Shown: positions 26,256 through 56,155 of the stretch, piece after piece | Numbering within the stretch: position 1 is the stretch's first letter | Layout: every line of letters begins with the position of its first letter | Source of the DNA: a virus | Taxonomy: Duplodnaviria; Caudoviricetes | Length of the DNA stretch: 64,000 nt | Strand: one strand, 5' to 3' | Virus record (IMG/VR): IMGVR_UViG_3300028591_000070 | Span: 128,001-192,000 of that record | The notes under the pieces: model-generated | Database searches by the model: none | What the model was told of the DNA's origin: nothing | What the model saw: the letters and a program-made list of their open reading frames with translations, nothing else | Program-made: the position numbers and the translations under genes

Positions 26256-27032
26256 TTAAATTGAAAAATATTTAAATCCGATTACAGCATCTTTGCCACA
26301 TTCGTCTTCAAGAACTTTCTTTACAGATCTTTTATCATCTTTTACGAAAGGCTGCTCTAAGAAACAAACTTCAGCTAGATGCTTATTAAGTTTACCAGTA
26401 AGAATACCTTCTTTTACCTTATCAGGTTTTCCGGCCATCTTAGGATCTTTATCCATCTGAGCCTTGAAAATTTCCATCTTTTCATCAAGGTAGTCCTGAG
26501 GTACACTTTCTTTGTTGATAAAAGGTGGCTCAAAAGCTACAAGATGCAAACAGCAGTCATGAGCAAATGTTTTTGCCTTCTCTCTGTCTTTAACATTAGA
26601 AAGAATTACTACAGCACCAGACTTATTATCAGAATGTACATATGTACCAACTACATCTTCAGGACCATAGTCAAATGATTTTTCTGTGTCGATAATAATA
26701 TTTTCGCGCATAGAAACTTTAAGTTTATCTACAGCTTCTGTGAGATTTTCAGCTTCACCTAATGCTGCAAAGTCTTTGTTATTTGCAACAAAGTCTGTCT
26801 CACATTTTATAACAGCAACATTTACAGCATCTTTACCATTATCTTTGATAAAGACTCGACCTTCAGCAGTAGCTCTACCACTTCTAGCATCAGAAGCAGC
26901 AAGTCCTTTCTTCTGAAGAACTTTTATTGCTTCATCAAAATCACCATTAGCTTCATCTAATGCCTTCTTACAATCTGCAAGACCTGCCATAGTAGCAGCT
27001 CTTAATTTTTTAACCAATTCAACATTTGCCAT
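26256..27032 (-). CDS. tsf: Translation elongation factor Ts
   Basis: 'LVKKLRAATMAGLADCKKAL', 'AEG', 'CETDFVA', 'EQPFVKDD'. Confidence 0.97.
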   Translation of the reverse strand: MANVELVKKLRAATMAGLADCKKALDEANGDFDEAIKVLQKKGLAASDARSGRATAEGRVFIKDNGKDAVNVAVIKCETDFVANNKDFAALGEAENLTEAVDKLKVSMRENIIIDTEKSFDYGPEDVVGTYVHSDNKSGAVVILSNVKDREKAKTFAHDCCLHLVAFEPPFINKESVPQDYLDEKMEIFKAQMDKDPKMAGKPDKVKEGILTGKLNKHLAEVCFLEQPFVKDDKRSVKKVLEDECGKDAVIGFKYFSI

Positions 27033-28265
27033 TTATTTTTCCTCATCTGATGCTTTAAAGTTATAAATAGGTTTTATAATAGATATAACATCAGCATTTT
27101 CTTTAATATTATCCAAAATCTCATCAGCAGATTTATAAGCCATTGGAGATTCATCAATTGTAGAAGTACTTACACAAGTAGTATAAATATCCTTCATTGC
27201 CGCCTTAAAATCTTCCATCTTCAAGCATTCTTTTGCTTTAGAACGAGACATTAAACGACCAGCTCCATGTGGGCCAGAGAAGTTCCAGTCTGGGTTTCCC
27301 TTACCTTTTACAATCAAAGAACCATATTCCATGTTGATTGGAATAATAGCTTCTTCACCTTCCTGAAGAGAAATTGCGCCTTTACGCAAAATGCCATTTT
27401 CAAGGTCGATATAATTGTGGATAGTACAAAACTTACCAAGAATATGTCTTTTTTTAATTCCCATTTCTTCAATGAGAACATCAAGCATTGCTTCACGATT
27501 TAAGCGAGCAAACTCCTGGCAGATTTTCATATCATGCAAATATCCATCCAAATCTTCGCCTTCAAGATATGACAACTCTCTAGAAATTATAACTGGTGGA
27601 AGCTTAGCAATTTCTTCCTGAATGTCTTTTTCACGACCTTCTTTTTTAAGTCTGTTAATAAGTTCATTCTTAGCAGAAGAATTATTTTTATGATAAGCGA
27701 TTGCTTTATTTTCCCAGTATTTAGCAACTACAATTCCAAGGTGACGAGAACCAGAGTGGATTACAATATAATAATCACCATTCTCATCTTTATCGATTTC
27801 AACAAAGTGGTTTCCACCACCTAATGAACCCATAGCATAAAGTTCTTTATCATAGTCGGCATCCGCAATAAGCTGTTTAATGTCAATATTTTTTGTAAAC
27901 TTATGGTAAGTTGAACGATGGCCCGCTCCTGATGGAACTTTAGTATGCATGATCTTATCAAACTTATCCAAACCTGGCTTATTAAATAACTGCTTTCCAG
28001 CTTCTGCAGAAATTTTCAAAACAAGCATTCCACAGCCAATATCAACTCCAACCATATTTGGATTGACGCGAGGATTCTCTTTATTGATCTTCTGGGTAAA
28101 TCCAATTGTGACACCTTTTCCACTGTGTACATCTGGCATAATAGCCACATGGCATCCCTCTGTAACAGGATTATTTGCAAAAGTATATAATTGAGATAAT
28201 GCCTCATCCTCAACTGTTGAGGCATATACATTCATTTCGCAAAACTTACCTTTAATAGTAAACAT
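27033..28265 (-). CDS. rtcB: RtcB 3'-phosphate/5'-OH RNA ligase
   Basis: 'MPDVH.GKG', 'VGVDIGCG', 'GSLGGGNHF', 'HSGSR', 'HNY', 'HGAGR', 'DESPMAYK'. Confidence 0.97.
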   Translation of the reverse strand: MFTIKGKFCEMNVYASTVEDEALSQLYTFANNPVTEGCHVAIMPDVHSGKGVTIGFTQKINKENPRVNPNMVGVDIGCGMLVLKISAEAGKQLFNKPGLDKFDKIMHTKVPSGAGHRSTYHKFTKNIDIKQLIADADYDKELYAMGSLGGGNHFVEIDKDENGDYYIVIHSGSRHLGIVVAKYWENKAIAYHKNNSSAKNELINRLKKEGREKDIQEEIAKLPPVIISRELSYLEGEDLDGYLHDMKICQEFARLNREAMLDVLIEEMGIKKRHILGKFCTIHNYIDLENGILRKGAISLQEGEEAIIPINMEYGSLIVKGKGNPDWNFSGPHGAGRLMSRSKAKECLKMEDFKAAMKDIYTTCVSTSTIDESPMAYKSADEILDNIKENADVISIIKPIYNFKASDEEK

Positions 28266-34548: not shown

Positions 34549-34552
34549 AAAG

Positions 34553-34577
34553 AAAGCCACTCAATTGAGTGGCTTTT
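34553..34577. terminator. Bidirectional terminator; ends tRNA operon A
   Basis: aaagccactc-aatt-gagtggctttt. Confidence 0.85.
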
Positions 34578-34595: not shown

Positions 34596-34684
34596 TTCTG
34601 AGGGCGGGATTCGAACCTGCACGACTCGGGTATGAGTCACCAGAATCAAAATCTGGGGAGATACCAATTACTCTTTACCTCAGA
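34596..34684 (-). tRNA. tRNA-Gln(TTG) with atypical long variable arm (operon A)
   Basis: ccaga-TTTTGAT-tctgg, then hairpin gactc/gagtc. Confidence 0.75.
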
Positions 34685-34691
34685 GTGAAGA

Positions 34692-34776
34692 CGGATAAGG
34701 TGAGATTCGAACTCACGGAAAGTTTCCAATCACTTCCTTAGCAGGGAAGCCACATAAACCACTCGTGCACTTATCC
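34692..34776 (-). tRNA. tRNA-Ser(GCT) (operon A)
   Basis: cttcc-CTGCTAA-ggaag, long variable region, G73. Confidence 0.9.
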
Positions 34777-34786
34777 ATAATAAAAT

Positions 34787-34869
34787 TAGGAGCGGTTGGA
34801 TTTGAACCAACATCCACCAGTTAGACGCATTATACTGGACGGTTTATAAGACCGCGCTCATACGCTCCT
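34787..34869 (-). tRNA. D-armless tRNA-Ile(TAT)-like (operon A)
   Basis: Acceptor aggagcg/cgctcct, 7-nt linker instead of a D arm, gcggt-CTTATAA-accgt, long V hairpin, normal T arm. Confidence 0.65.
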
Positions 34870-34877
34870 ATGGTAGT

Positions 34878-34943
34878 TGGCTACAAGCGAGTCGGACGCT
34901 TCGAACTAGCCTTATGAGAGCCAGTTGGCAAACCTGCGTAACC
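34878..34943 (-). tRNA. Compact tRNA(CAT)-like, Met or Ile2 (operon A)
   Basis: 7-bp anticodon stem around CTCATAA, minimal D region, 3-nt variable loop, T loop TCCGACT. Confidence 0.55.
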
Positions 34944-35110
34944 AAAGAAAAATAGCTAGTTCAACATCATTCTGCAGGGTCACTAGCCTTGTTGTCACGT
35001 GGTTTTTTCCTTTATTGGAATGTGATACTTGCTTTCATATCATCTTTTCAGGTCGCAAACCTTCCATAAAGTAAGACAACGTTCTGCACTCCGGAACTTC
35101 CCCAGAATTT

Positions 35111-35183
35111 TTCTAGCGGTAGGAGTCGGACCCACACAAGCTTGATCCAGAGTCAAGAGCACTACCTATTATGCTACGCTAGA
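35111..35183 (-). tRNA. tRNA-Gln(CTG) (operon A)
   Basis: cttga-CTCTGGA-tcaag, U1-A72. Confidence 0.85.
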
Positions 35184-35184
35184 G

Positions 35185-35258
35185 TCGGCAAGATGGGACT
35201 CGAACCCATAAAATTCACATTTTGAGTGTGACACGTATTCCAATTCCGTCACTCACCG
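35185..35258 (-). tRNA. tRNA-Leu(CAA), short variable loop (operon A)
   Basis: tcaca-CTCAAAA-tgtga. Confidence 0.8.
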
Positions 35259-35264
35259 AAAACA

Positions 35265-35393
35265 AAAAGAAATAAGAATAAGCAAAAGAGTTCTGTGGGA
35301 CTTGAACCCACAAGCCATAAGGCGTTTGATTTGCGATCAAAATGAGTATACCAATTTCTCGAAGTAACTCTTTCAAACTGCATTATTTCTTTT
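35265..35393 (-). ncRNA. Y-RNA (YrlA-like) module carrying a non-permuted Leu-type tRNA body
   Basis: AATGCAG..GAGTTACTTCG motif and terminal stem; internal D arm, tttga-TCGCAAA-tcaaa, V arm, T arm. Confidence 0.7.
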
Positions 35394-35397
35394 ATAA

Positions 35398-35479
35398 TGG
35401 GCCTGGAGAGATTCGAACTCTCAATCCTTTCGGCGCCTGCCCCTTAAACAGGTGTGCATACCAATTCCACCACAGACCC
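35398..35479 (-). tRNA. tRNA-Leu(AAG) (operon A)
   Basis: cctgt-TTAAGGG-gcagg, long V arm. Confidence 0.85.
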
Positions 35480-35487
35480 AAATAAAG

Positions 35488-35569
35488 TCGACCAGGAGGG
35501 ATTTGAACCCTCAATCCTTACGGCGTCCGATCTTAAGTCGGATGTGCATTCCAGTTCCACCACTGGTCG
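35488..35569 (-). tRNA. tRNA-Leu(TAA) (operon A)
   Basis: tccga-CTTAAGA-tcgga, long V arm. Confidence 0.9.
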
Positions 35570-35576
35570 ATAAATA

Positions 35577-35647
35577 TGTGCTGGAGGGGAGTTGAACCCC
35601 CATGTGAAGAACCACAATCTTCCGTCCTACCGTTGAACGACCAGTAC
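35577..35647 (-). tRNA. tRNA-His(GTG) (operon A)
   Basis: gaaga-TTGTGGT-tcttc. Confidence 0.85.
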
Positions 35648-35649
35648 AG

Positions 35650-35722
35650 TCCCGCTGAGAAGATTTGAACTTCCACTTTATAGATTCTAAGTCTACTGCC
35701 TCTGCCGTTGGGCTACAGCGGG
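35650..35722 (-). tRNA. tRNA-Leu(TAG), short variable loop (operon A)
   Basis: gtaga-CTTAGAA-tctat. Confidence 0.85.
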
Positions 35723-35731
35723 AAAATAAAG

Positions 35732-35804
35732 TGTGAATGGTTGGAATCGAACCAACGACACGAAAATTTTCGGTCTTCTGCTCCACCTACTGAGCCACAT
35801 CCAC
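35732..35804 (-). tRNA. tRNA-Phe(GAA) (operon A)
   Basis: gaaga-CCGAAAA-ttttc (C33). Confidence 0.8.
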
Positions 35805-35811
35805 ATAAGAG

Positions 35812-35882
35812 CCCGGAGACAGGGAGTCGAACCCCAACTTTTGGATCTTCAGTCCAAAGCACTTCCGTTATGCAACCTCCGG
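35812..35882 (-). tRNA. tRNA-Phe(GAA), first gene of operon A
   Basis: ttgga-CTGAAGA-tccaa. Confidence 0.8.
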
Positions 35883-35931
35883 AAAATAAAAAACCCTCTC
35901 GATTTTTTCGAGAGGGCTCTATAAAAATTAA
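35883..35931 (-). terminator. Attenuator terminator A
   Basis: RNA cccucucga/ucgagaggg hairpin plus U-tract directly before the first tRNA; 5' arm complementary to the end of leader A. Confidence 0.85.
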
Positions 35932-35960
35932 ACTTATTATGAATCTATCACATATCAAAT

Positions 35961-36068
35961 CTAATTTCTATAAAGTCCTCCACCGAATAGGAGTATAAAC
36001 ATTTGCTGTAAAAACAAATGTAACTGGCTGAGAAAACTAAACTGATGTAAACTCATTGTATTGTTCAT
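35961..36068 (-). CDS. Leader peptide A: MNNTMSLHQFSFLSQLHLFLQQMFILLFGGGLYRN
   Basis: SD aggag; residues 5-28 use only M/S/L/H/Q/F/I, the tRNA set of operon A. Confidence 0.85.
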   Translation of the reverse strand: MNNTMSLHQFSFLSQLHLFLQQMFILLFGGGLYRN

Positions 36069-36154
36069 ACCTATACTCCTTTTATATTAAATTTTATAAT
36101 TTAATTAGTACAGTCACTAAAAGTAACTTACATATTTTATATTAACATAAACTT

Positions 36155-36878
36155 TTAACATGGGTCTCCCCAAGCATTATGTCTTATGTAGGTTGAAAAC
36201 CTGAAACCTTTATTTCTATCAGGTGGAAAAAGATGCACATAACCACTAAGCTCTTTTCTATCCATACCATCAAAAATGGAATATTCTACATACCAACCTG
36301 CATCAGTAAATTGTTTCCATGGAAGAAAGCGAATATCATCTGGAAAGTCTGGACTATCCCAAAAAAGACACGCTCTTGCATCTTCTATGGTATAAGGAAT
36401 TTCAAATACCTTAGTACTTGGATAATTGTTACCCTTATCTAGTTGCTGCTTTAAATCATCAGCAACAGCTTTCATTTTAGCATCAGAGTGCATGTTTATA
36501 TATTTTGCAATAGAATAATCATGTCTCTGTTTAATTTTAGCTTCTTCTTTCTCTACAACTTGTTCATATGTAGGGAAATTTTCCATAAAAACCTTCTTAC
36601 TTTTCAGAAATTAAATCTTCTTCAAAAGACATATGATACAACCAACAAGCTGCAGCTCTGATATTTGCTTCGGCTGCTCCTGGACCTTCAAGTTCAAACA
36701 TTTTAATTAAATCAGGTTCAGTATTGTAAATAGCAACTGCATCACCAGAAAGACCAACGATTAAATCTTCTTTCTTACCATTTTTATGGGTAAGAGTAAT
36801 ACCACCTTCTTTAGCATTCAAAACCTGCTTAAGGCGAGCAATCAGTCTTTTTTCTAAGTCTTCTGAAATTTTAATCAT
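36155..36878 (-). CDS. Two hypothetical proteins (36597-36878, 36155-36586)
   Basis: ORF track; GTATATTCTA motif just upstream. Confidence 0.6.
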
Positions 36879-39527: not shown

Positions 39528-40106
39528 TTATATCCTTCCAGGTCTAAAACCTTCAGGACATTCTTTTGCTTTTATATTAATTTCTCCATTTGTATACCAA
39601 TGAGTACCAAATTGAGAATTTTTAGATCCTTTTTGATGTTCACTGTTTGTTAAACCAATTTTTCTTTTGGTTTCTTCTGAATGATGTTTACCAGTGAAAG
39701 TATCGTGTTTTTTCCAACCACAATTCTTAAAAAGATCTGGATGTTTTTCTCTTGTAGACTTCCAAGTTTTAGACATCTTAGAATAGTCTATAAACTTTGA
39801 AGTATCTCCTCCATCACCACCTTTAGCAAGATTATATTCTGCTTTACCAATAAGCTTTTGGCAAGCTATCATACATCTTTCAAAGCGATTAATTTGTTCT
39901 TTTGAGAAGAAACCAGAAACAAGAATTCTTTTTTTAAAAGACTTTTTTCCATATTTCTGATATGCTTCTCTAAGAATAGAACCAGAACCCATATATGTAT
40001 CAGATGTAATTGTACGATCTTTACGCACAGTATGCTGACCTATATAAGTTTTTCCATTCGTTAAATTTGTAATTTCATAAATATATCTTATTCGTAATTC
40101 ACTCAT
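39528..40106 (-). mobile_element. GIY-YIG homing endonuclease (Seg-like, NUMOD3)
   Basis: 'YIYEITNLTNGKTYIGQH', 'YMGSG', 'YNLAKGG', 'GKHHSEETKRKI'. Confidence 0.9.
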
Positions 40107-41027: not shown

Positions 41028-41068
41028 AAAATAAAAAAGGTCTTTCATTTCTGAAAGACCTTAAGTAA
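41028..41068 (-). terminator. Attenuator terminator B
   Basis: RNA aaggucuuuca/ugaaagaccuu plus U-tract; 5' arm complementary to the end of leader B. Confidence 0.85.
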
Positions 41069-41090
41069 ATCTATAAAAAAACTTATAACC

Positions 41091-41228
41091 TTACTTAAAG
41101 TCTTTCTCCTTTTTACCGGCAATAACCCATTTAGAAGAACAAGGCACAATACGAGGGGCAACTGCTTTCGCAGACGCAATAGAAGAGGCACAAATAATTG
41201 AACGACCGATAATTCCATTCTCTACCAT
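41091..41228 (-). CDS. Leader peptide B: MVENGIIGRSIICASSIASAKAVAPRIVPCSSKWVIAGKKEKDFK
   Basis: SD aaggag; residues 5-40 use only G/I/R/S/C/A/K/V/P/W, the tRNA set of operon B. Confidence 0.9.
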   Translation of the reverse strand: MVENGIIGRSIICASSIASAKAVAPRIVPCSSKWVIAGKKEKDFK

Positions 41229-41342: not shown

Positions 41343-42230
41343 AAGCTGAGATTTATTGACTTTCCTCTGCGTCCATCTTCATCACTTTCGCAACTTAACC
41401 ACACTTTCATTTCTGAAAGTAGAACGCATAGCGAATAACTTAAAGGTGTTATCTACCTACTACAATAAGACTAATAATTTCATTTTTCATCCCTAGCGGC
41501 TTGCGGCCTAAGAAGCTTGCGGGCTCCTACCAGTTGATTACTTCAATCCATTCTTGACTTTCCTTGCGGTACTCACCAAGTCAACATATTACAGTTGAAT
41601 AACGCTATTTTCATCTTATCGTGACCAACACTTTTGCTTATCATGGCACAAAATGCTGGACTTGAACCAGCCACATTTAGATTAATAGTCTAACGCTCTA
41701 TCCTACTGAGCTAATTCTGTAATTATCGGTGAACTTCCTTGGGAGACGAGGTTGACCTTAATACCATGGCACCTTTTGAGTGCTTTAGGTAAATCGCCTC
41801 TCTTTTTTCGTCTGCTAAACTACTCAATCTAATAAAGTCAACATCTCTCACTTTCGCTTAAGCGTCAACATAATTCGTTATCATCTCACTCAGAATTTTG
41901 CATGTTCTTATTAGATGATATACATATCCCATATGTAAGCTTTCGACCCACATTCTTTTCAATCTTGTCTTTTAGACTTGATCTAAGCTCGTTGTTCAAC
42001 CGAGCAATACCACTGCAAACCTCAGCATTTGCCATCAATCTGCGCCATAGTATCTTGAATATGTAGTTTTCGTATGAAGTGATAAATCACCGCTGCACCT
42101 TTACGAATGCAACTTTCGCCGCTTATGAATTCACGGTTTATTCTAACGACTAGAAACCAGCCGGTGAACCCGAAGGTTCGATTAAATTACTGAGGATTGA
42201 ACCTCTATAACCTTGTAGTTAAGTAATTTA
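41343..42230 (-). ncRNA. Large structured ncRNA, GOLLD-like candidate with embedded tRNA
   Basis: ~890 nt without ORF, many GNRA/UUCG-capped hairpins (cGCAAg x3, gGCGAAAg, cUUCGg), own upstream TGTTAATAT motif. Confidence 0.5.
41644..41720 (-). tRNA. tRNA-Asn(ATT) with encoded CCA, inside the large ncRNA
   Basis: ttaga-CTATTAA-tctaa, G73-CCA. Confidence 0.8.
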
Positions 42231-42270: not shown

Positions 42271-42407
42271 GATTGAGAATTTTGTGAAAAAGTATTTTTA
42301 CGGCGTGCTAACCAACTACACTAAAGCTCCCATAAACGGAGCTTACAGGATTCGAACCTGTGATACCGGCGTGATAGGCGAAGTAACTTTTTCGATCTGC
42401 ATCAATC
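42271..42407 (-). ncRNA. YrlA-like Y RNA with circularly permuted tRNA-Asp-like domain
   Basis: ATGCAG..AGTTACTTCG, then tcacgccgg, T arm, closed acceptor hairpin aagctcc/ggagctt, D arm. Confidence 0.8.
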
Positions 42408-44813: not shown

Positions 44814-46499
44814 TTATTGCTGATTTACAGCATGTCTACCAGCTTTCTTGGCCTGTTTTTCCTGGTCTTTCTGAGCTTCGATAGCATCCCACTGCTTGAT
44901 ATAAGCGTCAGCGAATAATGCTTCTTTTCCTGTCCAACCATACAAGAATGCTGTACGGTAGCTCATTTCTGGAATAAGAACATTATCATATCCAGCTGTT
45001 TGACAGCTAAATACATTTACCTTTGGATTTACCTTTTTGCGATATTCCTGAATAAGTGCATAAACATTGATCATATGACCCTTACATCTGAAGCTTCTGT
45101 AGTCATCATCATTAAGACCATATAATCCACCTGTTCCTGCCTGCTGGTCTGAGAAAATGAAAATATTATCATAAACTTCTTTCTTTGCAATTGCATCTTT
45201 GAAGAATAACCAAATACCATTCTCAGTACCACCACCTACATCGTTATCTCCTCTGCTTGATAAAAGCTTTGTCTGAGCAAGAGCACCATTTCTCTTAGAA
45301 ACTGGAGATGTAATAAGTCTGTCACCAAATTTACCAACATAACCTTCATCTGAAGCTTTTGCAATTAAAATTGAAGACAAGTTGTCAATATCAGCAATAG
45401 TAGTCCTTCCATATTCAGAAGTAAATCCATGCCATGCAGAACCTGAGTTGTCAGAAAGAACCATTGTCTTTCCCTTCAACTTTGGTAAGTTTTCAATTGC
45501 AATGTCCATACACTCTTCAAGAGCATCAAGAATTAAAGTCTGGTGATTGATACCTGAAGCCTCTTCAATCATCTGATATGCATTCCAATATCTGAATGGG
45601 AACTGCTTACCTTTAAGGACTCCACCTTTCAAATCTTCCAAAACTTTCTTACAGAATTCTGTGTCTTTTACATCTGTGAAGATGTTTCTCAAGTTGCGTA
45701 AAAGAGCCATGTGCTGCATACAGCCTGACTCATAGATTTCACGCCAACCCATTCCAGCAGAGCGTTTCTGTTCCCAAGTTTCCCTGTCTTCAGTAACCTT
45801 TACTGTACCTGTCTGCATCAACTCATTCAAAACTGGTGAGTTTGCATGAGAAATACGAACACCATTGATCATACCAATTTCGTGGTTCTTGTATTTGTTA
45901 ACAGCATAAGCATCCAATGAGCTAAGTTTCTTAGCAATAGACTTTTTCAAGATTGTTGGAATCTTGTTTTTCTTACCACCATTAATATACATGTAATATG
46001 TAAGCTGAGTAAGTGGCTCATCTGCACGAGACATAACCAACTTTTCTACAGCTGCAAACTTTCCAGGATTTGCATTACAGAAATCAGCACGCTTTGGATG
46101 GATTGCTGCACGTACCATAATAACCTGTGGATTAAGGCGCATATTGTATGTTTTACGCAAATCAACTGCAAAGTCCAAAGTTCCGCCAAAGTCATAATCC
46201 AATGCCTTATCAATAGCTTCAGTAAATACCTCTGTTGTTGATTTTCCTGCACTAGCAGAGAAGATTGCATACATAGCTGGATCGGTAAATTCCTTTTGCC
46301 AAGAGAATTTTCCATCCTTTACATCTTTTCTGTAATAAGAAGCCTCACCAAAAATTGATGATGCTGAAATCAACTTGAGAGTATCAAGTGGATTTACTTT
46401 GTAAGAATCGCCACCCATAAAGTTTGTAACGATTTCATCTGGTCTAAGTTTATTCATCTCATTCATCTGAGATACTGCTTTAGCCATTTTCTTGCTCAT
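44814..46499 (-). CDS. rsr: Ro60/Rsr TROVE-vWA RNA-binding protein
   Basis: 'NFMGG.SY', 'MALLRNLRNI', 'FPFRY', vWA MIDAS-like 'SDNSGS', 'IFSD.Q'. Confidence 0.93.
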   Translation of the reverse strand: MSKKMAKAVSQMNEMNKLRPDEIVTNFMGGDSYKVNPLDTLKLISASSIFGEASYYRKDVKDGKFSWQKEFTDPAMYAIFSASAGKSTTEVFTEAIDKALDYDFGGTLDFAVDLRKTYNMRLNPQVIMVRAAIHPKRADFCNANPGKFAAVEKLVMSRADEPLTQLTYYMYINGGKKNKIPTILKKSIAKKLSSLDAYAVNKYKNHEIGMINGVRISHANSPVLNELMQTGTVKVTEDRETWEQKRSAGMGWREIYESGCMQHMALLRNLRNIFTDVKDTEFCKKVLEDLKGGVLKGKQFPFRYWNAYQMIEEASGINHQTLILDALEECMDIAIENLPKLKGKTMVLSDNSGSAWHGFTSEYGRTTIADIDNLSSILIAKASDEGYVGKFGDRLITSPVSKRNGALAQTKLLSSRGDNDVGGGTENGIWLFFKDAIAKKEVYDNIFIFSDQQAGTGGLYGLNDDDYRSFRCKGHMINVYALIQEYRKKVNPKVNVFSCQTAGYDNVLIPEMSYRTAFLYGWTGKEALFADAYIKQWDAIEAQKDQEKQAKKAGRHAVNQQ

Positions 46500-46974: not shown

Positions 46975-47088
46975 TTAGATGGTCACAGAGAATAACAACC
47001 CAGGTTTTTTCATAAACTATAAAAATTCATGAAAGTCTCAAAAAGAGTTCTCGCTCTCACTTAAGTGAGGACCAATCACTTAAGCTAT

Positions 47089-47162
47089 TGGCGCTGACAG
47101 GGCTCGAACCTGCATAGAACTGTTTAGAAGACAGTTTGCACATCCAATTGGCACACAGCGTC
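47089..47162 (-). tRNA. tRNA-Arg(TCT)
   Basis: actgt-CTTCTAA-acagt. Confidence 0.85.
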
Positions 47163-47203
47163 ATATATGTTAATTAGTTTATATTAAAATATTAACATTC
47201 AAT

Positions 47204-47614
47204 TTATTCAGTTTCTTTAACACGACCTGAATTAAAAATAAGTAAAGCATCATCTAAGTTGCAATATACTTTACCATCAACTTTATGATGATCTGCATCT
47301 GTATAAATAACACCTATAATAGCATAATGCTCTTCAGTTTCATCTTTCCAAAAGTCATATTTAGAATTTGGATTATTTGGAAGTTGTACTAATATAAGCA
47401 TTCGAGAACTCATACATTTTGTCTGTAAAACAACTGCATCTTTAATATTAGGAATAATAGATTTTGCTTTTGTTGTTGATTCTACTTTTTCTTCAGGAGT
47501 TGGCTCATCAATTTCCATTTGTCCAATAGACCATGAATAAGGATCTTCTTTCTCCATACAAGAAGAAAATAGCACACCAATTAAACAAATAAATAAAACA
47601 AAATACTTTTTCAT
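47204..47614 (-). CDS. Putative lipoprotein
   Basis: MKKYFVLFICLIGVLFSSC: signal peptide ending in a spirochaete-like lipobox. Confidence 0.6.
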   Translation of the reverse strand: MKKYFVLFICLIGVLFSSCMEKEDPYSWSIGQMEIDEPTPEEKVESTTKAKSIIPNIKDAVVLQTKCMSSRMLILVQLPNNPNSKYDFWKDETEEHYAIIGVIYTDADHHKVDGKVYCNLDDALLIFNSGRVKETE

Positions 47615-47722
47615 CCTAATCCTCAAGAGAAGCAAGTCCTAGCATTACAGATACAGCAACAACACCTACAATTAAAACTACTGCAATTACGCCTAACAAT
47701 ACTTTCATAATTACTCCACAAA

Positions 47723-47794
47723 AGGACCTATCCGGAATTGAACCGGACTCCACTCTTTAGGAGAGAGTTATTCTATCCGTTAAACTATAGGTCC
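47723..47794 (-). tRNA. tRNA-Arg(CCT)
   Basis: actct-CTCCTAA-agagt. Confidence 0.88.
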
Positions 47795-55241: not shown

Positions 55242-55280
55242 AAAATAAAAAAGCTCTCCGAAAGGAGAGCTCATAAAACT
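55242..55280 (-). terminator. Attenuator terminator C
   Basis: RNA agcucucc-uuuc-ggagagcu plus U-tract; 5' arm complementary to the end of leader C. Confidence 0.85.
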
Positions 55281-55300
55281 TTTTTAATTATATAGTTTTA

Positions 55301-55402
55301 TTAACTCTCTCTTTTATACAAAGTAGTTTCTTCTGTCCCATAATCATATGTTACATTTTCATAAGAGAAATTATTATTGTAATCATAATTCATAGTAAAC
55401 AT
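55301..55402 (-). CDS. Leader peptide C: MFTMNYDYNNNFSYENVTYDYGTEETTLYKRES
   Basis: SD ggagg; 23 of the first 27 residues are M/N/Y/D/T/E/G, the tRNA set of operon C. Confidence 0.85.
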   Translation of the reverse strand: MFTMNYDYNNNFSYENVTYDYGTEETTLYKRES

Positions 55403-55789: not shown

Positions 55790-56155
55790 TGGACTATGTG
55801 GGAATCGAACCCACGTCCGAACTACTCAGCACTAATAGAACTTCTACTAGATGGTGTCTTAGGTTAGTTTTTCTTGGACCTAGCAATATCAACTATAGAA
55901 CTGTTCACTAAAATTGAAGTTGACACAAAATTAGCTACTCGACTCGGTTTAGTAACAACATTTAAGATACTGAGTCTTCCTACTCAAATGCCGTCGGAAA
56001 AGATTATACTCTTCCGATTAAGCTACAAGGCGAGCTGCCTTGCGAGCTGTTCTGCTTGTTCTGTTAGCATTTATTTGGTCTTTGACTAGTTTTTTCTCTA
56101 GGTTCTGCCATCATTCTACCAGCCATTTTATAGCCGTCGAAACCGGGAATAGCCC
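55790..56155 (-). ncRNA. ssrA: tmRNA; tag reading frame 56068-56018 = ANRTSRTARKAARLVA*
   Basis: 5' GGGCTAT..GGTTTCGAC, 3' GACGTGGGTTCGATTCCCACATAGTCCA with G3-U70; resume context ataaatGCT. Confidence 0.9.

Follow-up and report, generated by a model that had tools for sequence, protein, structure and literature searches.

The question raised by this locus is whether a short open reading frame just ahead of a block of phage tRNA genes reads the supply of the tRNAs encoded behind it. The DNA analysed (the window) is a stretch of 64,000 nucleotides, positions 128,001 to 192,000 of virus record IMGVR_UViG_3300028591_000070, which comprises 385,934 bp at 31.7% GC. ARAGORN places 46 tRNAs and a tmRNA here, all on the minus strand of the window, and the tRNA genes adjoin genes for Ro60/TROVE, RtcB and EF-Ts. 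The unit described below (unit A) is very probably a ribosome-mediated transcription attenuator of the trp style that gates phage tRNA operon A. This reading, first put forward in the earlier note, is supported by the anatomy of the unit, by codon matching, by a computed dependence on ribosome position and by recurrence in unrelated phages with other codon sets.

Operon A contains 12 tRNA genes in total and is laid out as follows.

35397 to 35882, minus strand: tRNAs Phe(GAA) (two copies), Leu(TAG), His(GTG), Leu(TAA) and Leu(AAG), from ARAGORN and Rfam
35270 to 35392, minus strand: Y-RNA-like wrapper with a tRNA-like body (Cys(GCA) in ARAGORN; 26 bits in Rfam, below the cut-off)
35111 to 35258, minus strand: tRNAs Leu(CAA) and Gln(CTG)
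about 34876 to 34945, minus strand: compact tRNA with a CAU loop, Met or Ile2
34787 to 34869, minus strand: atypical tRNA with a UAU loop (Rfam tRNA, 34.8 bits)
34596 to 34777, minus strand: tRNAs Ser(GCT) and Gln(TTG)
34552 to 34577, no strand assigned: bidirectional terminator at the end of operon A

Several members depart from the usual form. The tRNA-Leu at 35397-35480 (minus strand) has an AAG anticodon and would require A34 or inosine, and the tRNA-Phe at 35731-35804 (minus strand) carries C at position 33; both are possibly nuclease-evading variants. The tRNA with the UAU loop, which adjoins the compact tRNA, lacks a clear D arm, and its variable hairpin is long. The Cys(GCA) call was rejected as a canonical tRNA, given its wrapper and its 26 bits. 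A structured RNA also lies inside the operon (34955-35108, minus strand), and sequence about 90% similar to it occurs in RNA contigs from several runs.

Upstream of the first tRNA, the features of the leader can be listed in the direction of transcription.

36139 to 36147, minus strand: promoter-like motif TGTTAATAT, found phage-wide upstream of many genes and conserved in relatives; a putative promoter
36102 to 36112, minus strand: second promoter-like motif TGTACTAATTA, after a short palindrome; the same cassette precedes leaders B and C
36067 to 36080, minus strand: Shine-Dalgarno (SD) and start region (AGGAG at 36080-36076), also the 5' strand of the anti-SD helix
35961 to 36068, minus strand: leader ORF A (35 codons, then TAG), which gene calling also picks up in two Logan contigs
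35985 to 36056, minus strand: codon-matched tract, codons 5-28 (effective sensor approximately codons 5-25)

Each of codons 5-28 specifies Phe, Leu, His, Gln, Met, Ser (as AGY) or Ile (as ATA), a group referred to here as set A; codons 2-4 (Asn, Asn, Thr) lie outside it, and Cys codons are absent from the leader. Set A accounts for 22.6% of codons in the ORFs of the phage, and leader A matches it at 25 of 34 codons (binomial P 4e-10). Nowhere in the six frames of the 386-kb genome is there a longer run than these 24 codons, the runner-up reaching 19, and mononucleotide shuffles gave runs of at most 12 in 200,000 trials. Codons of set B, which belongs to a sister unit described below, occur once in 34. 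The 24 consecutive matching codons reported in the earlier note were thus found again, and so was its correspondence between individual codons and tRNAs: TTA, CTC, TTG, CTA, CAG and CAA are all present, as are the Leu tRNAs with anticodons TAA, AAG, CAA and TAG and the Gln tRNAs with CTG and TTG.

The antiterminator and the terminator comprise three further elements.

35956 to 35987, minus strand: antiterminator 5' strand, formed by the 3' end of the leader and its stop codon
35907 to 35936, minus strand: antiterminator 3' strand, overlapping the entire terminator 5' arm
35883 to 35920, minus strand: intrinsic terminator abutting the first tRNA (core 35916-35894, -15 kcal/mol; U tract 35893-35883)

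Pairing of 35980-35961 with 35912-35931 at 19 of 20 positions had been proposed from inspection, together with overlap of the terminator 5' arm. The count is correct (the single mismatch is A-C, 35976/35916), and the helix grows on both flanks to about 29 bp, covering the whole of that arm. The GGGLYRN tail of the leader peptide coincides with the antiterminator strand, as previously noticed. The duplex has an energy of -26.2 kcal/mol. Among 22,052 windows taken from the genome, a single one does better (-43.8; it is presumably the complementary strand of the terminator arm itself), the next best being -19.8.

It had also been suggested that masking of the stop region by a ribosome would decide whether the terminator forms. 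In the finished RNA at equilibrium it does not: the 9-bp terminator core has a probability of 0.98 whatever the ribosome position. The terminator also wins at equilibrium in the E. coli controls (trp 0.88-0.97, his 1.0), and since these known attenuators fail the test too, it is invalid as a refutation; equilibrium folding with a masked stop region was set aside as non-discriminating. The informative state is cotranscriptional, namely the transcript just before the terminator 3' arm emerges. In this state, unit A does switch. With the A site of the ribosome anywhere in codons 2-25, the antiterminator sequesters the 5' arm at a probability of 0.85-0.87; this hold falls to 0.58, 0.44 and 0.07 at codons 26, 27 and 28, respectively. 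The end of the matched tract therefore coincides with the structural switch boundary, whose place varies by roughly one codon for every 3 nt in the assumed ribosome footprint. In this folding test, the E. coli trp and his leaders resemble A. Because the terminator dominates at equilibrium at every ribosome position, control by unit A must be kinetic; the computed barrier for refolding from antiterminator to terminator is modest (5.7 kcal/mol, compared with 6.0 for E. coli trp).

From this arrangement we infer promoter use, translation of the leader in vivo, coupling, actual termination or read-through, feedback and a physiological trigger, in the following sequence. Host RNA polymerase would initiate at the upstream cassette, and a ribosome would load on leader A. 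With normal decoding of Phe, Leu, His, Gln, Ser-AGY and Met codons, the ribosome would pass codon ~27 and cover the antiterminator strand before the terminator 3' arm exists, in which case the terminator would fold and transcription would end just before tRNA-Phe. With slow decoding of set A, the ribosome would lag, the ~29-bp antiterminator would form first and hold the terminator 5' arm, and the 12 tRNA genes would be transcribed. The new tRNAs would then restore decoding and close the switch, a negative feedback. Host polymerase and host terminators are likely, given that the phage genome encodes a sigma-70 region-2 protein and gave no match to RNA polymerase beta. TilS and sheath likewise had no match in the phage genome, and a 143-aa protein encoded upstream had none in the viral contig collection.

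A second helix probably limits what the leader can sense.

35989 to 36002, minus strand: anti-SD strand, codons 23-27, pairing at 14 of 14 positions with 36080-36067

Against codon shuffles, this helix is significant in unit A (P 0.016), in sister unit B (P 0.038) and in one phage leader from elsewhere (G004, P 0.006), and not in most others, so that it was rejected as a universal feature and taken as specific to particular units. It probably curbs re-initiation, so that a transcript would be translated in a pioneer round only. Codons ATA(25), CTC(26) and CTA(27) lie both in the 14-bp helix and at the switch boundary. Their identity can be explained by anti-SD pairing independently of tRNA matching, and a ribosome stalled there would itself begin to melt the antiterminator; these last matched codons are thus doubtful as sensors. 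The earlier description of a Leu/Phe/Gln/His/Ser-AGY/Met/Ile-ATA sensor accordingly stands as to codon match and ribosome dependence, while its Ile-ATA and Leu-CTA parts are doubtful. Within the effective zone are Phe, Leu (TTA, TTG, and CTC at codon 13), His, Gln, Ser-AGY and Met.

Conservation among relatives follows both the codons and the helices. Across codons 2-28 in 8 full-length copies of unit A, all changes are synonymous. Counted over the copies, the antiterminator core is paired in 192 of 192 cases, with one change from G-U to A-U, the terminator in 101 of 101 and the anti-SD helix in 124 of 126; indels are confined to loops, and one change in L020 breaks a pair in the outer extension of the antiterminator. 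In two of these phages, the protein neighbouring unit A drops to 62-66% identity, and within operon A of the relatives the tRNA order is reshuffled while the set is kept. The helices of unit A are nearly invariant, with no two-sided covariation. In the antiterminator of unit B, 8 of 24 pairs vary and 98.8% are still paired, with one two-sided change, a covariation signal that is weak relative to shuffles (27/500).

The same design appears twice more in the window.

41028 to 41228, minus strand: attenuator B (leader 41228-41091), before Pro, Ser-TGA, Ala, Gly, Ile, Val, Cys, Lys, Trp and Arg tRNAs
55242 to 55402, minus strand: attenuator C (leader 55402-55301), before Asn, Tyr, Asp, Met, Thr, Glu and Gly tRNAs

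Leaders B and C could be defined without reference to composition because the same promoter-like cassette lies upstream. Leader B matches its own block at 38 of 44 codons (P 6e-10) and set A at 1 of 44; leader C matches its own block at 24 of 32 (P 9e-6). Even split codon boxes track the operons: Ser-AGY is found in A (3/3), and Ser-TCN (6/6), Ile-ATY (7/7) and Arg-CGT (2/2) in B. As the sets are defined in this analysis, the only codons outside A, B and C together are CGG, AGA and AGG. In the same folding, the antiterminator hold drops at codons 39-41 in unit B, where the matched run ends at 40, and at codons 28-31 in unit C, again in agreement with the end of the tract.

Other elements lie among the tRNA blocks. 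Genes for tRNA-Arg(TCT) and tRNA-Arg(CCT), readers of AGR, are at 47088-47794 (minus strand), outside all three attenuated blocks. A GIY-YIG (SegE-like) endonuclease gene (39528-40106, minus strand) is inserted in operon B, and operon C of relatives contains other nuclease genes. A GOLLD-like RNA at 41343-41802 (minus strand; RF02032, E 9e-25, with 96 bits against a gathering score of 150) encloses a tRNA-like Asn(ATT) gene, and in four gut metatranscriptomes the depth of RNA contigs over 41550-42150 far exceeds that of the flanks. Nine Y-RNA-like wrappers (GCAG..GTTACTTC) surround tRNA-like bodies, some of them permuted, and one (42283-42393) has a weak YrlA match of 23.9 bits.

35381, 40505, 42400, 46687, 46792, 51053, 53781, 54001 and 54226, minus strand: Y-RNA-like wrappers
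44814 to 46499, minus strand: Ro60/TROVE gene

Other loci were collected by Ro60 homology, together with one distant metagenome match (L005). Unrelated leaders share the order of ORF, antiterminator, terminator and tRNAs, with different partitions of the code, and show a ribosome-dependent collapse of the antiterminator near the end of the matched stretch. G002 has four units, G001 and G003 have two each, and in G007 four were detected. For 17 leaders, the match is 0.68 to their own arrays versus 0.31 to other arrays (permutation P 5e-6, a value inflated by the choice of some leaders partly by eye). Among cultured phages of Caulobacter and Brevundimonas, one CcrColossus leader (L205:12670) precedes Tyr, Phe, Val, Ile, Gln, Asn and Arg tRNAs and another (L205:5786) precedes Pro, Lys, Leu, His, Ala, Ser and Thr tRNAs; CcrKarma (L209:6493) and Brevundimonas phage Kikimora (L210:6503) also carry the design, whereas a second CcrKarma leader (L209:4092) matches in composition but has no computed switch. 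Several leaders in this group (L205, L209, L210) directly follow a promoter-like TTGACA and have no SD. In the 211-kb virus record G007 (L197, L198, L199, L201), tRNA matches number 74, and at least four small blocks have matched leaders of their own upstream, for example Tyr/Leu only. No leader was detected at the arrays in L193, L195, L200, L202, L203, DAC19, BRock and cr272_1; either the design is not universal or the detector missed some.

Folding with no ribosome on the transcript bears on what such a switch responds to. The antiterminator then forms with a probability of 0.87 in A, 0.89 in B and 0.99 in C, unlike trp (0.06) and his (0.21), so that failed translation should turn the operon on. 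A stall anywhere in codons 2-25, including the off-set codons 2-4, also leaves the antiterminator intact, and the specificity of switch A is accordingly predicted to be graded rather than absolute. These results, along with an anti-SD helix that favours the untranslated state, are what would be expected of a general sensor of translation coupling or a developmental timer, opening whenever ribosomes do not keep up with RNA polymerase (through ribosome shortage, an initiation block or host shut-off), with the codon match as fine-tuning. We consider this improbable as the main function: such a device needs no codon matching, yet the leaders match their own blocks down to the split boxes, in partitions that vary from phage to phage. 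Less probable still is a terminator that serves as a constant stop or processing site and is relieved by an antitermination protein of the phage, with the ORF encoding a functional small hydrophobic peptide and the codon match incidental. Peptide A is indeed hydrophobic and conserved at the amino-acid level, and the terminator is thermodynamically dominant; but the peptide matched no Pfam family, leaders B and C and the leaders in other phages have no trait in common as peptides, just the match to downstream tRNAs, and the long antiterminator, with its edge at the end of the tract, is left unexplained. Chance in AT/T-rich intergenic sequence, which would favour the T-rich codons of Phe and Leu and ready pairing of T-rich with A-rich strands, is negligible considering the shuffled maximum of 12, a duplex far outside the genome distribution, and three units in one genome with many more in unrelated phages, GC-rich ones included.

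If unit A is an attenuator, the most likely physiological trigger is loss or shortage of tRNAs rather than amino-acid starvation, which extra tRNA would not cure. Taken together, the three attenuators may even constitute a surveillance of the tRNA pool, dividing the code into three blocks and supplying replacements upon depletion by anticodon nucleases or infection, as an inducible feedback counter-defence common to many large phages; we advance this tentatively, as a little short of an even prospect. The nearby RtcB, Ro60, Y-RNA-like and tmRNA genes would fit a translation-rescue island. EF-Ts, RtcB and tmRNA, a putative translation-rescue set, are encoded beside the tRNA operons (26256-28265 and 55790-56155, minus strand). 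The EF-Ts is nearest to those of Treponema and other spirochaetes (44-47% identity), which may be a weak hint of the host. Close relatives come from metagenomes that, from their accessions, we take to be largely rumen. Bovine and sheep gut RNA runs contain small shares of such sequence, as contigs that report neither transcript ends nor levels and that do not span the leader, leaving 36036-36669 uncovered.

A long-standing question is whether phage tRNAs serve codon compensation or replace destroyed host tRNAs. Host defences cleave tRNAs and phage tRNAs can rescue infection (PMC12409363; PMC10264068): T5 tRNAs counter the PARIS defence (PMC12409363), and phage tRNAs resistant to anticodon nucleases have been described (PMC10264068). 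Like operon A, these are arrays able to replace depleted host tRNAs; for them no leader with a sensing or regulatory role is described, and the text of PMC10264068 contains neither 'attenuat' nor 'leader'. In the phiCbK-like Caulobacter phages, which have the same leader/antiterminator/terminator design with no claim of sequence kinship to unit A, Gill et al. 2012 (PMC3556154) and the GenBank records annotate tRNAs and terminators only, and 'attenuat' and 'leader' do not occur in the paper. No published description of attenuation control of tRNA genes was found, in a search largely covering literature other than subscription journals. A switch that reads the supply of the tRNAs it controls would imply production on demand, and would amount to an internal readout of the tRNAs that become scarce in infection. 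Because cultured phiCbK-like phages share the design, it is testable now. Leader composition may in addition help to assign atypical tRNA genes missed by annotation.

Among known systems, T-box riboswitches resemble unit A in that tRNA status sets the choice between terminator and antiterminator, but they bind uncharged tRNA directly and need no ribosome; the T-box consensus (Stem I specifier loop) had no Rfam match in the window. The E. coli pheST attenuator, with its pheM leader, likewise uses leader-peptide attenuation to tie part of the translation machinery to charged tRNA; it regulates a synthetase according to one amino acid, whereas unit A regulates tRNAs themselves. The closest counterparts are the enterobacterial amino-acid leaders, among them ilvGMEDA (Ile/Leu/Val) and thr (Thr/Ile), with trpL and hisL of the same class and pheL. 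As in A, a short leader with control codons and alternative antiterminator and terminator leave the decision to ribosome position, a mechanism described for pheL in PMC3082878. Unit A has a short translatable ORF (35 codons, AGGAG, and a tract that varies only synonymously), control codons that correspond to what the genes behind it do, an intrinsic terminator between leader and first gene (35920-35883) and, in silico, a mutually exclusive antiterminator dependent on ribosome position (0.86 at codons 2-25, 0.07 at codon 28). In contrast to trp and his, it has no 1:2 pause/protector hairpin of the classical trp/his/phe type, and thus no superattenuation (the sole candidate, a 4-bp CUCC/GGAG hairpin, is outcompeted by the anti-SD helix), and its SD is tied up in a 14-bp helix. 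None of the Rfam families of amino-acid leaders (Leu, Phe, His, Trp, Thr) matched leader A at the gathering score; the only hit was a trpB motif (29.5 bits, E 0.64). In contrast to ilv/thr-type leaders, unit A is phage-borne and would control tRNA genes rather than biosynthetic enzymes and sense about seven specificities in one 24-codon tract, with three units dividing the code. Unit A, a member of no Rfam leader family, very probably works like the multivalent ilv/thr leader attenuators and regulates tRNA genes, a reading under which classical attenuation reaches phages and their tRNA genes as well.
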